Shown one piece after another: positions 16,636-24,095 of a stretch of DNA of 32,675 nt. This DNA is from a virus (Duplodnaviria; Heunggongvirae; Uroviricota; Caudoviricetes), in IMG/VR virus record IMGVR_UViG_2663763159_000003, positions 1 through 32,675 of that record. The stretch is one strand, 5' to 3'. The first letter of the stretch is position 1. The number at the start of each line of letters is the position of its first letter. Position numbers and translations under genes: made by a program. The notes under the pieces are model-generated. The model saw only the letters and a program-made list of their open reading frames with translations, ran no database searches and had not been told where the DNA came from.

Positions 16636-16711
16636 TGGTGCTGGTTAACGGACTTGAACCGCTACCCATTCGCTTACAAGGCGACCGCTCTACCATTGGA
16701 GCTAAACCAGC
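16636..16711 (-). tRNA. tRNA-Thr(UGU)-like, 76 nt with encoded CCA
   Basis: Hand-folded cloverleaf: acceptor GCUGGUU/AACCAGC, D-arm GCUC-CAAUGGUA-GAGC, anticodon loop CUUGUAA, T-arm AGCGG-UUCAAGU-CCGUU. Confidence 0.6.
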
Positions 16712-16716
16712 ATATT

Positions 16717-16791
16717 TGGCGGGACAGCGTGGACTCGAACCACGATAAGAAGGTTAACAGCCTTCCGTAATGACCTTTATACGACTGACCC
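16717..16791 (-). tRNA. tRNA-Asn(GUU)-like, 75 nt, deviant D-arm (possibly degenerate)
   Basis: Anticodon arm GAAGG-CUGUUAA-CCUUC, T-arm CGUGG-UUCGAGU-CCACG, acceptor with one U-U mismatch, CCA encoded. Confidence 0.45.
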
Positions 16792-20795: not shown

Positions 20796-21092
20796 TCAGA
20801 ATTGCATATCAATTTGCTTAGAGTCCCCGGCGGCCACCGGGGATTTTTTCTTTGTGATTCCATCAAGCGCATACTTAAAAGCCCTACTAATCGGACTGAT
20901 GTCTGATGCCATTCCGAAAGCACACAAGACTGAAGCAATAAATCTCCAGTCCGTTCTGCTTATCTTCGATTCATGACAGCCAATCATCTTTGCCAGACCG
21001 CGCTGGGTAATAGTTGACAGATTGATAAGTAAATCTGTTTCTGCGCGATCAACGTCACGCTGTGATAGTTTGCTGTAACTTGTTCTTTCCAT
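20796..21092 (-). CDS. cII: CII-like transcriptional activator
   Basis: 98 aa, HTH region and C-terminal ...KKKSPVAAGDSKQIDMQF resembling λ CII terminus; position between cro and O. Confidence 0.7.
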   Translation of the reverse strand: MERTSYSKLSQRDVDRAETDLLINLSTITQRGLAKMIGCHESKISRTDWRFIASVLCAFGMASDISPISRAFKYALDGITKKKSPVAAGDSKQIDMQF

Positions 21093-21230: not shown

Positions 21231-21458
21231 TTATGCTGCCAGAAGGTTCTTTTTGCTTATTTCAAGCAATTCGCTTGCTTGATATTTGCCACCAGAAATC
21301 TCTTCGATTTTTGAGGCGTATTTCGTTTTCCCAAAAAACTCAGTCTTAGGGAGGAAGCCGTTTTTGAGCCACTTATAGACAGCCCTTTCGCTAACTCCAC
21401 AAGCCTTCGCAACTTCAGGGATGCCGACACCTTTAATCGGCTCATCAAGATTTTGCAT
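21231..21458 (-). CDS. cro: Cro-like repressor (HTH)
   Basis: 75 aa, HTH segment VAKACGVSERAVYKW, divergent from cI across a 79-bp operator region. Confidence 0.7.
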   Translation of the reverse strand: MQNLDEPIKGVGIPEVAKACGVSERAVYKWLKNGFLPKTEFFGKTKYASKIEEISGGKYQASELLEISKKNLLAA

Positions 21459-21537
21459 AGGAATATCCCTTTTTCGTACTTTTAGTACGCATTATGGTTG
21501 AACTGAAAGTTTTTGCAAGTGCTTTAGTATCGTACTC
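21459..21537. promoter_or_regulatory. OR operator / PR-PRM region
   Basis: Perfect palindrome cgtacttttagtacg at 21475..21489 and related site tttagtatcgtact at 21523..21536. Confidence 0.6.
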
Positions 21538-22245: not shown

Positions 22246-22368
22246 CTTCAAGTACGCGACAAGCCCCGTCCTTCAGGGCGTGGAGGATGTCAAAATAACT
22301 TTAAATAACACACCACCAACATTTAACACATTGAATTAAAAAACCTACAATATTTGATGAGAGGCGTT

Positions 22369-22689
22369 ATGGAACCGGTCAAAATTAAACCATCTGTGGA
22401 TTATATTGAAACCTATGCGGACTTCGCTAGTTTTGCTCCACTACCGGGAGCGGAAAAAAATCTCATTTGTATACATTTTATCGCAAACAAGTCAATACCT
22501 GCGGTACTATCCCAAAATGATATACCAGATCAACCAGGTAGAGCGAATATGCAGATAGGCTCTGTAAATGAACTCAATCAGCAATGCACTGTGATAATGC
22601 CAATGGCACAACTAAAGGCTCTTCAAGAGAATATAGTTCTTCTTTTCGAACAATTAGAGGCACAAAACTCTAATGGAGCGAAGTCGTAA
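22369..22689 (+). CDS. Hypothetical soluble protein, first gene of the rex-slot cassette
   Basis: Start taken at MEPVK with GAGAGG RBS; stop overlaps next start (TAATG). Confidence 0.6.
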   Translation: MEPVKIKPSVDYIETYADFASFAPLPGAEKNLICIHFIANKSIPAVLSQNDIPDQPGRANMQIGSVNELNQQCTVIMPMAQLKALQENIVLLFEQLEAQNSNGAKS

Positions 22690-23372
22690 TGCAACAACCG
22701 GAAGAAGTAGGTGATTTAACTATTACTTACAAAACATCAAGTATTGTTAAACCACTGCAAGTTTCCCTGAATAACGTTAATACTCGCGATTTCATGATGT
22801 TCATGGAAACAGCAAAAGGTAATCTGTTTTCTACGCCTATTTCCTCTTATTCACCAAAAAACATGGTGGATGATGCGACCAATTCCCAGCTAACTGCTAC
22901 AATCGTAGATAAAGGAGGGGTTGCCGATTGTAAAGGACAATCTAATGTTATCCCACCGTACGAGGAAACTCCTATACAGGGAACCGCAATGTCCGATTTG
23001 AGCAGAAACGAAATACAGGCACTTCTGAAGGCAAATAAAGCTGAAGTGGATGCAGTGGCCTCAAAAATGCAGGCTGATATGGCCAAATGGCGTGAACTAA
23101 TGGCTTCAGATATAAAGGAGATGAAGCATTTAGTTGTTACTCAGCACGAACAAATCAACAGTCGTCTGGACATACAATCGAGTAGAATTGAGAGTGCCCT
23201 TGACTCCCAATCAAAAAAGATCGATGCAGCTCTTTCTGTTCAAGAGGCAAAGTTAGAAGGTAAGCTTAGTGATGTTAAGCTTGATATAATCAAATGGGCC
23301 CTTGGCTTGCCAGCATTAGCATTTACTGTATATAAAATCTACGGATTGCTCTCTGGAGTCTCAACCCCCTAA
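22689..23372 (+). CDS. Hypothetical tail-anchored coiled-coil membrane protein, second gene of the rex-slot cassette
   Basis: 227 aa; Gln/Ser/Lys-rich heptad-like region residues ~105-200; C-terminal hydrophobic helix IIKWALGLPALAFTVYKIYGLLSGV. Confidence 0.7.
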   Translation: MQQPEEVGDLTITYKTSSIVKPLQVSLNNVNTRDFMMFMETAKGNLFSTPISSYSPKNMVDDATNSQLTATIVDKGGVADCKGQSNVIPPYEETPIQGTAMSDLSRNEIQALLKANKAEVDAVASKMQADMAKWRELMASDIKEMKHLVVTQHEQINSRLDIQSSRIESALDSQSKKIDAALSVQEAKLEGKLSDVKLDIIKWALGLPALAFTVYKIYGLLSGVSTP

Positions 23373-23378
23373 TACACA

Positions 23379-23402
23379 CCCGGCCTCAGTGCCGGGTTTT
23401 CT
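23379..23402 (+). terminator. Rho-independent terminator ending the cI operon
   Basis: cccggcctcagtgccggg followed by tttt. Confidence 0.6.
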
Positions 23403-23559
23403 TTGCCCAACGTTCGCCCACCTAAAAACACATAATCGATTGTATTTATTGAAAAACTGATAGATACAACTTGCTAAACAGTGCAACCCTGATCCCTGCC
23501 CCATCACCTTCATCCTCAACATTTACAAAAATAAAATACCTTATATATCAAAACCATAT

Positions 23560-23678
23560 CTCGAGAAAACGAATGAACAACAAATTTTCGTACTTATGGT
23601 TCTTGATTGTATCGAACCAATAGTTCATTATTATCACCATCAGCAGGACGCTGGAAGCCAAATGGAACAGACTGGCAG
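23560..23678 (+). promoter_or_regulatory. pL / OL region (approximate)
   Basis: Contains ttttcgtactt at 23585..23595, the same half-site as in OR; lies upstream of nutL and N. Confidence 0.35.
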
Positions 23679-23822: not shown

Positions 23823-24095
23823 ATGTCCAGAAAAACAGAATTTAAAGGCACCGCAGCTTCTCGCCGTAGAGCTCGTCGTGCAAACCTGCAAAGTCAGGAG
23901 GCGATCAGCTCTGACAAACTACACAGGCCAACCCCTTCACGAGTGGTCTTACAATGCAAACGCAAACCAGTAATGAGAGCAGAAGTAATAACACTGACAA
24001 CGTTGACCAGAAAATATGAAGGCTCAACTTGTCTTCCAAATGTAGCCATTTACGCGGCAGGCTACAGGAAATCCAAACAGCTGACAGCAAGATGA
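23823..24095 (+). CDS. N-like antiterminator with arginine-rich motif
   Basis: Start at ATG 23823 with GGGAGG RBS; N-terminal GTAASRRRARRANLQ arginine-rich motif; position after pL/nutL. Confidence 0.7.
   Translation: MSRKTEFKGTAASRRRARRANLQSQEAISSDKLHRPTPSRVVLQCKRKPVMRAEVITLTTLTRKYEGSTCLPNVAIYAAGYRKSKQLTAR

Follow-up and report, generated by a model that had tools for sequence, protein, structure and literature searches.

The interval between the repressor gene cI and the antitermination gene N of lambdoid prophages is a described hotspot that houses RexAB and BstA, the latter a proven abortive-infection protein of the cI slot (Owen et al. 2021, PMC8585504). Here we describe a cassette of two open reading frames (ORFs), termed ORF-A and ORF-B, that occupies this interval in a sequence of 32 675 nucleotides (nt) from a virus of the Caudoviricetes (IMG/VR record IMGVR_UViG_2663763159_000003, positions 1 to 32 675; this whole stretch is referred to as the window). 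The reading that we favour, with a confidence that falls a little short of even, is that the cassette is an anti-phage module expressed in lysogens and acting by exclusion or abortive infection. Its position, its expected expression and its architecture all point in this direction.

The cassette resembles the lambda RexAB pair in several respects. Both lie in the identical slot, after cI and before a terminator, oL/pL and N, and both consist of two genes on the cI strand, one for a soluble and one for a membrane protein, that are expected to be made in lysogens. However, RexB is polytopic with four transmembrane (TM) segments, whereas for ORF-B a single anchor at the C-terminus is predicted, together with an extended, presumably cytoplasmic coiled coil, and RexA, at 279 amino acids (aa), is much longer than the 106 aa of ORF-A and shares no sequence similarity with it. 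A first-pass annotation, made from the letters of the window alone, had stated that neither protein resembles RexA or RexB, and indeed no match to either was detected in Pfam or PADLOC at E≤1. BstA and the Stk cassette of phage 933W are likewise cargo located immediately downstream of a prophage repressor, and a Ser/Thr-kinase cassette replaces the cassette of the window behind the same cI allele in one prophage (locus L021). These are nevertheless unrelated proteins with unrelated mechanisms, BstA being a single soluble DNA-associated protein. A further comparison is with the superinfection-exclusion moron of the HK97 gp15 type, reportedly a small inner-membrane protein expressed from the prophage. 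The likeness lies in this kind of product, in the moron character and in a distant relative of ORF-B that is found among moron-like genes beside a tape-measure gene (L017). However, gp15 is not known to be related in sequence, and it is one small protein that has neither a partner nor an extended coiled coil.

The cassette is exchangeable cargo of the cI–N slot

Comparison of the cI-to-N region with E. coli genomes identified many prophages that carry this cI allele at 97–98 % identity. Homology of these prophages to the window ended at position 22250, 5 nt past the cI stop codon, and returned at 23370–23379, which corresponds to the stop codon of ORF-B and the terminator. Unrelated genes occupied the interval in the homologous prophages L018–L021, consisting of a serine proteinase, a group of genes that includes the kinase, or a gene pair from a prophage of E. 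coli PK5 (Table 1). The two genes of this last pair overlap by 14 nt and the 145-aa product is β-rich. In locus L026, the same cassette was found behind a cI gene with a different N-terminal (DNA-binding) half. The proposal that the slot holds accessory cargo is borne out by these breakpoints and replacements, and the cassette is a discrete, exchangeable unit (a moron) with sharp boundaries.

A strong terminator had been noted after the second ORF. This was recovered as a stem at 23378–23397, with seven pairs of which six are G–C, followed by UUUUCUUU (folding free energy −13.4 kcal/mol, z=−2.66). A near-identical terminator (AACCCGGCC-N4-6-GCCGGGTTTTT) ends the cI-slot cargo in most of the related loci (L002–L018), where it stands behind unrelated cargo and in different genera. 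This indicates that the terminator belongs to the slot and not to the cassette. As a conserved feature of the slot, like t_imm, it forms the right-hand recombination boundary.

The window represents a lambdoid (HK97/lambda-like) prophage with an immunity region that reads on the plus strand. The cI gene upstream and the terminator and N downstream all lie on one strand and, as N is the next gene on that strand, the slot is positionally equivalent to the rexAB slot of lambda, as the first-pass annotation had claimed. Its description of two coupled ORFs after cI on the same strand was also correct, including the TAATG overlap, in which the TAA of ORF-A (22687–22689) shares a base with the ATG of ORF-B (22689–22691). 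The ATG of ORF-A at 22369 is preceded by GAGAGG, and the same start is used in the PGAP annotation and in all homologues. A third claim, that the region is more AT-rich than its surroundings, holds in part. The G+C fraction is 0.37–0.38, compared with 0.44–0.47 in cI and 0.46–0.52 around N, but the difference is modest and confined to 22300–22900.

The gene pair is conserved across genera

The identical 1156-bp region was present in 40 of 5426 complete E. coli genomes and was always chromosomal. Homologues of ORF-B formed 34 clusters with members in Klebsiella, Yersinia, Serratia and Providencia. In the genomic contexts retrieved for these homologues, an S24-type cI gene, an ORF of 94–106 aa and an ORF-B relative of about 230 aa followed one another on one strand, and the same order was observed in metagenomic Enterobacterales. 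These loci differ in their cI alleles (212–251 aa) and in their cII and replication modules. The upstream ORF of Yersinia is 51 % identical to ORF-A, and the proteins of the pair retain 50–66 % identity across genera. Comparisons of the window with the Yersinia, Klebsiella and metagenomic loci gave saturated synonymous divergence (dS) together with non-synonymous divergence (dN) of 0.26–0.43, indicating that both genes are under purifying selection. Both ORFs are real genes, far beyond what chance would produce.

Among 27 IMG/VR contigs with an ORF-B relative, an S24 repressor gene was located directly upstream in at least 18, and an iterative profile search detected a gene of the ORF-A superfamily immediately upstream in 19. 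In some relatives, the gap between cI and the partner gene was only 7, 45 or 46 bp. A promoter of its own could not be accommodated in gaps of this size, and the partner gene is therefore likely to be transcribed together with cI. A tblastn search of both proteins against 50 697 records of isolated phages produced no match, and a DNA search of isolated phages matched only a 31-nt element of the leader. None of the contexts inspected placed the family in a core chromosome, and its known members all come from prophages or viral contigs.

ORF-B links a small head to an invariant core, a stalk and a membrane anchor

The alignment of relatives and an AlphaFold2 model divided ORF-B into a head, a tether, a core, a stalk and an anchor (Table 1). 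The head was modelled as two strands and a helix (β7–14, β23–31, α32–47), with a predicted local distance difference test (pLDDT) score of 88–91 for residues 11–40, and is proposed as the docking site for ORF-A. A globular N-terminal part had been predicted on first pass; a folded head does exist, but it comprises only about 47 aa and gives way to a disordered linker of about 50 aa (pLDDT<50). This tether is unconserved and varies in length among the relatives. The core, in contrast, is nearly invariant, with the motif 'E.QALLKANKAEVDAVA..M..DMAKWRE'. Scored over an alignment of 32 ORF-B relatives with overall identity down to 25 %, 12 columns were invariant (E108, A111, L113, K117, E119, V120, A124, M127, M131, W134, R135 and E136).

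Residues 103–221 formed a single continuous helix in the model. Hydrophobic periodicity in the stalk peaked at 3.67 residues (11/3), with four tandem 11-mers at residues 158–201. The Gln/Ser/Lys-rich, heptad-like region of the first-pass annotation is instead a hendecad repeat rich in Ala, Leu, Ser and Lys. Only one hydrophobic segment, at residues 196–221, was present in ORF-B. It is the C-terminal helix already recognized in that annotation, which is moderately hydrophobic and aligns with the membrane anchor of DUF1640. Relatives of the Providencia type have a classical 22-aa TM segment at the position of the anchor, followed by a tail of 40–50 aa. Among phage protein families, phrog_14825 (unknown function) matched ORF-B end to end and phrog_5820 matched residues 90–145. 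In a Foldseek search, the best PDB match of ORF-B had E=0.8, and profile searches of the PDB with both proteins (E≤1 and E≤10) returned designed proteins only, none of them related.

The earlier statement that neither protein belongs to a recognized family was upheld for ORF-A but not for the C-terminal half of ORF-B, which is DUF1640/CCDC90-like at a sub-threshold score. Residues 106–214 aligned with positions 63–167 of the 175 positions of the PF07798 profile at 27.5 bits (E=3.4e-6), below the gathering threshold of 33.5 bits. PGAP names ORF-B a 'CCDC90 family protein' and ORF-A a 'hypothetical protein', and the relatives of ORF-B have precomputed PF07798 matches that are mostly flagged weak or faint. 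In DUF1640 proteins, a β-layer motif (aliphatic-A-T-K-polar-D/E) opens the C-terminal stalk (Hartmann et al., PMC4786415). The corresponding place at the start of the ORF-B stalk is occupied by ANKAE, within the nearly invariant K-A-N-K-A-E at residues 114–119; this departs from the consensus in having N for T and a non-aliphatic first position. One likeness to the family is that the coiled-coil stalk runs straight into the C-terminal membrane anchor through a 'KW' junction. However, the canonical head (profile positions 1–62) is absent from ORF-B, which has the β-β-α head and the disordered tether instead, and neither an obligate upstream partner nor a prophage cI context has been described for the family. 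Because the canonical head is absent, ORF-B is termed DUF1640-like in its stalk and anchor and is not treated as a confirmed member.

ORF-A belongs to a very small family

ORF-A is acidic and, as originally described, small and soluble, with a maximum of 1.23 on the Kyte–Doolittle scale (19-residue window) and no hydrophobic segment. No match to ORF-A was detected in Pfam, PHROGs, PADLOC, NCBIfam or the PDB sequences. An HMMER search with an ORF-A family profile against 1.84 billion cluster representatives recovered only 20 proteins at E≤1e-3, with lengths of 37–116 aa (most about 85–116), and no Pfam domain was found in the ten of these that were scanned. The family is therefore very small. 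The AlphaFold2 model of ORF-A (mean pLDDT 83.6) starts with a short strand, which is followed by a long β-hairpin and a helix at the C-terminus (β3-α). Cys73 is invariant in the family, usually in an 'HEC' context. Structural neighbours were not significant; the best match in BFVD had E=1.8e-3, and the neighbours were uncharacterized phage proteins. A UniRef label of 'DUF3467' on one partner protein was not reproducible.

Partner proteins vary together with the N-terminus of ORF-B

Relatives of ORF-B fell into several N-terminal variants. The short relatives (165–171 aa) lack the β-β-α head and have a short N-terminus of the 'R.RL.lVGG' type. These are encoded just behind cI and are coupled to an upstream protein of 142–143 aa (A′) that is unrelated to ORF-A. 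More distant relatives share mainly the invariant core, and their partner (A″) is cysteine-rich and zinc-ribbon-like. One of these distant relatives (L017) is located between tape-measure and distal-tail genes, and others of the A″ type are in other accessory regions of temperate phages. The partner was always encoded immediately upstream, usually with an overlap, and at least three unrelated partner families were found that match the N-terminal variants. The strongest internal sign of joint action by the two proteins is this combination of a constant core, stalk and anchor with at least three unrelated partners. The pattern fits a scheme of a variable recognizer and a constant membrane module, and so lends some indirect support to the sensor/effector pair suggested by the first-pass annotation.

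The alternative cargo of the PK5 prophage (L018) has a similar layout. It shares the slot and the terminator, its genes overlap, and it encodes a soluble β-rich protein, distantly related to the A′ partners (pairwise E=2e-5), together with a coiled-coil protein of the XhlA family that has a C-terminal TM segment. The XhlA-family protein is only weakly similar to B′, the short relative of ORF-B in L014 (pairwise E=0.003), and has no match to ORF-B of the window. It lacks the invariant core and is uncharacterized in this context.

In some relatives, a small additional gene separates cI from the partner gene. The one in Serratia (L014:3415–3513) encodes a 32-aa YoaK-like membrane peptide, and in L015 (3294–3506) it encodes a 70-aa cysteine-rich, zinc-finger-like protein with no Pfam match.

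Leader and flanking features

The cI and ORF-A genes of the window are separated by a leader of 123 bp. A sigma-70-like site in this leader (TTAACA-17-TACAAT, 22323–22351) matches at 10 of 12 positions, and relatives in which the partner gene closely follows cI do not conserve it. Promoter-like sites numbered four, compared with 5.7 expected in shuffled sequences, and a promoter of the cassette's own is only possible and is not claimed. The 31-nt leader element (22264–22294) forms a predicted hairpin (−15.1 kcal/mol, z=−1.76) that lacks a T-run. A copy with 100 % identity occurs in 44 Stx-converting phages, including 933W, VT2-Sakai and Min27, and in 933W it closely follows the moron-like gene L0136 (YgiW/YdeI-like). 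The hairpin could be a module-boundary or attenuator element.

A different motif of about 20 nt was observed right behind the cI stop codon in several related loci, with a consensus of about AGTGGCCTGAMGAGACGYT, and does not occur in the window. In L015 this motif is present twice, on either side of the inserted zinc-finger ORF, as if marking the boundaries of an insertion. Rfam had no match in the leader of the window or in this post-cI motif of the relatives.

In the PGAP annotation, the cI product is named 'LexA family transcriptional regulator'. N is followed by ral, recT and the remaining genes. A perfect 15-bp palindrome, CGTACTTTTAGTACG, is present in the cro–cI intergenic region (21475–21489) and is built from 'CGTACT/AGTACG' half-sites. 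Further half-sites were observed at 21525–21537, at 22252–22260 just past the cI stop codon and at about 23589–23598 before N. Judged by sequence and location, these sites are probably the operators of this immunity type. Two tRNA genes (16639–16711 and 16720–16791, minus strand) lie between the Q antiterminator gene and the holin gene. They are annotated as tRNA-Thr and tRNA-Asn in an identical prophage. In the identical prophage of E. coli WCHEC4533, the integrase gene adjoins ybhC.

Table 1. Features of the window and of related loci. Positions without a locus name refer to the window; HTH, helix-turn-helix.
Feature	Position	Strand	Remarks
cII	20796–21092	−	
cro-like HTH gene	21231–21458	−	
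cI-type repressor, HTH_3 and Peptidase_S24, 235 aa	21538–22245	+	Pfam PF00717 E=4.8e-16, PF01381 E=1.2e-5
Cassette leader	22251–22368	+	Left exchange boundary 22250/22251
ORF-A, 106 aa, soluble acidic partner	22369–22689	+	
ORF-A predicted elements	Residues β19–24, β32–51, β59–78, α79–101		AlphaFold2
ORF-B, 227 aa	22689–23372	+	Stop codon 23370–23372
ORF-B β-β-α head, residues 1–47 ('GDLTISY...DFM.F')	22689–22829	+	Conserved among full-length relatives
ORF-B tether, residues 48–98, S/T/P/N-rich, predicted disordered	22830–22982	+	pLDDT 34–47
ORF-B core, residues 103–137, nearly invariant 'DLSRNEIQALLKANKAEVDAVASKMQADMAKWREL'	22995–23099	+	Includes 'ANKAE' and the WRE triplet
ORF-B coiled-coil stalk, residues 138–199	23100–23285	+	Hendecad periodicity
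ORF-B hydrophobic anchor, residues 200–221, 'IIKWALGLPALAFTVYKIYGLL'	23286–23351	+	A 6-residue tail precedes the stop codon
Intrinsic slot terminator (t_imm-like), right exchange boundary	23378–23405	+	ACCCGGC-CTCAGT-GCCGGGT plus TTTTCTTT
Antitermination protein N	23823–24095	+	Pfam N_peptide E=1.5e-32; coordinates from PGAP
Post-cI motif of about 20 nt	L006:4829–4860; L007; L011:3675–3700; L014:3336–3360; L015:3245–3275 and about 3505–3530		
Alternative cargo, 'SDH family Clp-fold serine proteinase', about 333 aa	L019:2095–3099; L020:4375–5376		No PADLOC match
Alternative cargo, DUF3024, hypothetical protein, Ser/Thr kinase and small ORF	L021:4269–6346		O157:H7
Alternative cargo, 145-aa protein and 123-aa XhlA-family coiled-coil/TM protein	L018:2208–3003		E. 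coli PK5 prophage

Possible functions of the cassette

An anti-phage module could work as follows. The cassette would be lysogen-expressed accessory cargo of the cI operon in an HK97/lambda-like prophage adjoining ybhC, with expression from PRM suggested by the operon position and the short gaps. The C-terminal helix of ORF-B would anchor the protein in the inner membrane, and the DUF1640-like hendecad stalk, which is probably trimeric, would project into the cytoplasm. The distal end of the stalk would carry the invariant 30-residue core, the flexible tether and the β-β-α head. ORF-A, whose synthesis the TAATG overlap would couple stoichiometrically to that of ORF-B, may bind this head. The partner might then sense an infection cue and cause ORF-B to compromise the membrane, in a form of abortive infection like that of RexAB, or the complex might block incoming phage DNA or ejection proteins at the inner membrane and so cause superinfection exclusion (Sie). 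A wider proposal, which we put forward as distinctly tentative, is that the cassette represents a new anti-phage family with a membrane-anchored trimeric DUF1640-like effector and interchangeable sensor partners from at least three families, ORF-A included.

Several observations weigh against an anti-phage role. PADLOC-DB v2 contained no match to ORF-A and only HEC-07 for ORF-B, at E=0.009 and over the coiled coil, while the relatives and the alternative partners gave coiled-coil noise only. Literature searches found no paper connecting CCDC90/DUF1640 with defence against phages and none citing the accessions of the RefSeq proteins, and no structural match to either protein pointed to an activity. 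The anchor is only moderately hydrophobic, with a 19-residue maximum of 1.36 at residues 196–214, and almost all of the mass of ORF-B is predicted to be cytoplasmic, which is unusual among known injection-blocking Sie proteins. The characterized eukaryotic relatives in DUF1640, MCUR1/CCDC90B, are scaffolds and not pore formers. The cassette is also rare, at 0.7 % of the E. coli genomes. Finally, a hotspot location is guilt by association, and such slots also hold non-defence morons.

An alternative that we consider unlikely is that the cassette is a lysogenic-conversion factor unrelated to phages, in which a membrane-tethered coiled-coil scaffold and its adaptor would alter the envelope or stress physiology of the host. 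It might recruit a host protein or ribosomes to the membrane, in the manner of the tail-anchored proteins ElaB/YqjD/YgaM, or serve as a scaffold for a transporter, as MCUR1/CCDC90B do for MCU. Such a role would agree with the DUF1640/CCDC90-like C-terminal half, as characterized members are scaffolds, with weak matches to 11-mer amphipathic repeat families (apolipoprotein and phasin) and with the long tether-plus-stalk geometry, which suits capture or tethering. An invariant core accompanied by varying partners also suggests that the core binds a conserved host component or self-assembles. However, DUF883 (the ElaB/YqjD/YgaM type) was not among the Pfam matches at E≤1, and the family is confined to prophages, not being seen in the core chromosomes inspected, and occurs overwhelmingly in the cI slot, where characterized cargo is anti-phage. 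Regulation of the prophage's own cycle is quite unlikely. In this case the cassette would tune induction, lysis timing or the decision between lysis and lysogeny, and might act on FtsH/HflKC, holin triggering or repressor cleavage. Its obligate link to the repressor gene across many immunity types is consistent with this role, and the same slot can hold an XhlA-family protein with an A′-like partner, the XhlA family having a link to PBSX lysis. For RexB, too, roles in the physiology of lambda itself have been put forward (PMC8585504). The cassette is nevertheless dispensable, since the same cI allele and flanks occur with unrelated genes, its relatives are also found away from cI in moron positions among tail genes, and a core regulator would not be expected in so small a share of E. 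coli genomes.

An addiction module of the toxin–antitoxin type, with ORF-B as a membrane toxin and ORF-A as its coupled upstream antidote, would stabilize the prophage. This is improbable. The gene order and overlap are like those of type II toxin–antitoxin operons, the pairing of a membrane-active candidate with a small acidic protein would suit such a module, and so would the interchangeable partner families. Against this, Pfam, NCBIfam and PADLOC showed no similarity of either protein to known toxin–antitoxin families, a domain for DNA binding or autoregulation is absent from ORF-A, and the operon appears to be driven from cI and not autoregulated. Addiction also overlaps mechanistically with abortive infection, which makes it hard to separate from the anti-phage reading. 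The possibility that the ORFs are spurious or decaying, which might be raised by their lack of an annotated function and by a G+C content below that of the flanks, is effectively excluded by the conservation of the pair in different genera, where dS is saturated while dN stays constrained, and by the intact frames, conserved overlap or short spacing, confidently predicted folds and invariant residues.

The cI–N slot is a proven reservoir of defence genes expressed in lysogens (RexAB, BstA and Stk), and the cassette is a conserved occupant of this slot without a characterized relative. If it is anti-phage, its tail-anchored trimeric coiled coil with exchangeable partners would be an effector architecture of a new type, and it would provide the first prokaryotic function for DUF1640, the family of the mitochondrial proteins MCUR1/CCDC90B. 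The cassette is present in clinical, carbapenemase-era E. coli lineages, in which prophage-borne phage resistance bears on phage therapy. If it is not anti-phage, the locus would still show cleanly how modular cargo is exchanged behind a repressor gene, with boundaries sharp to the nucleotide.

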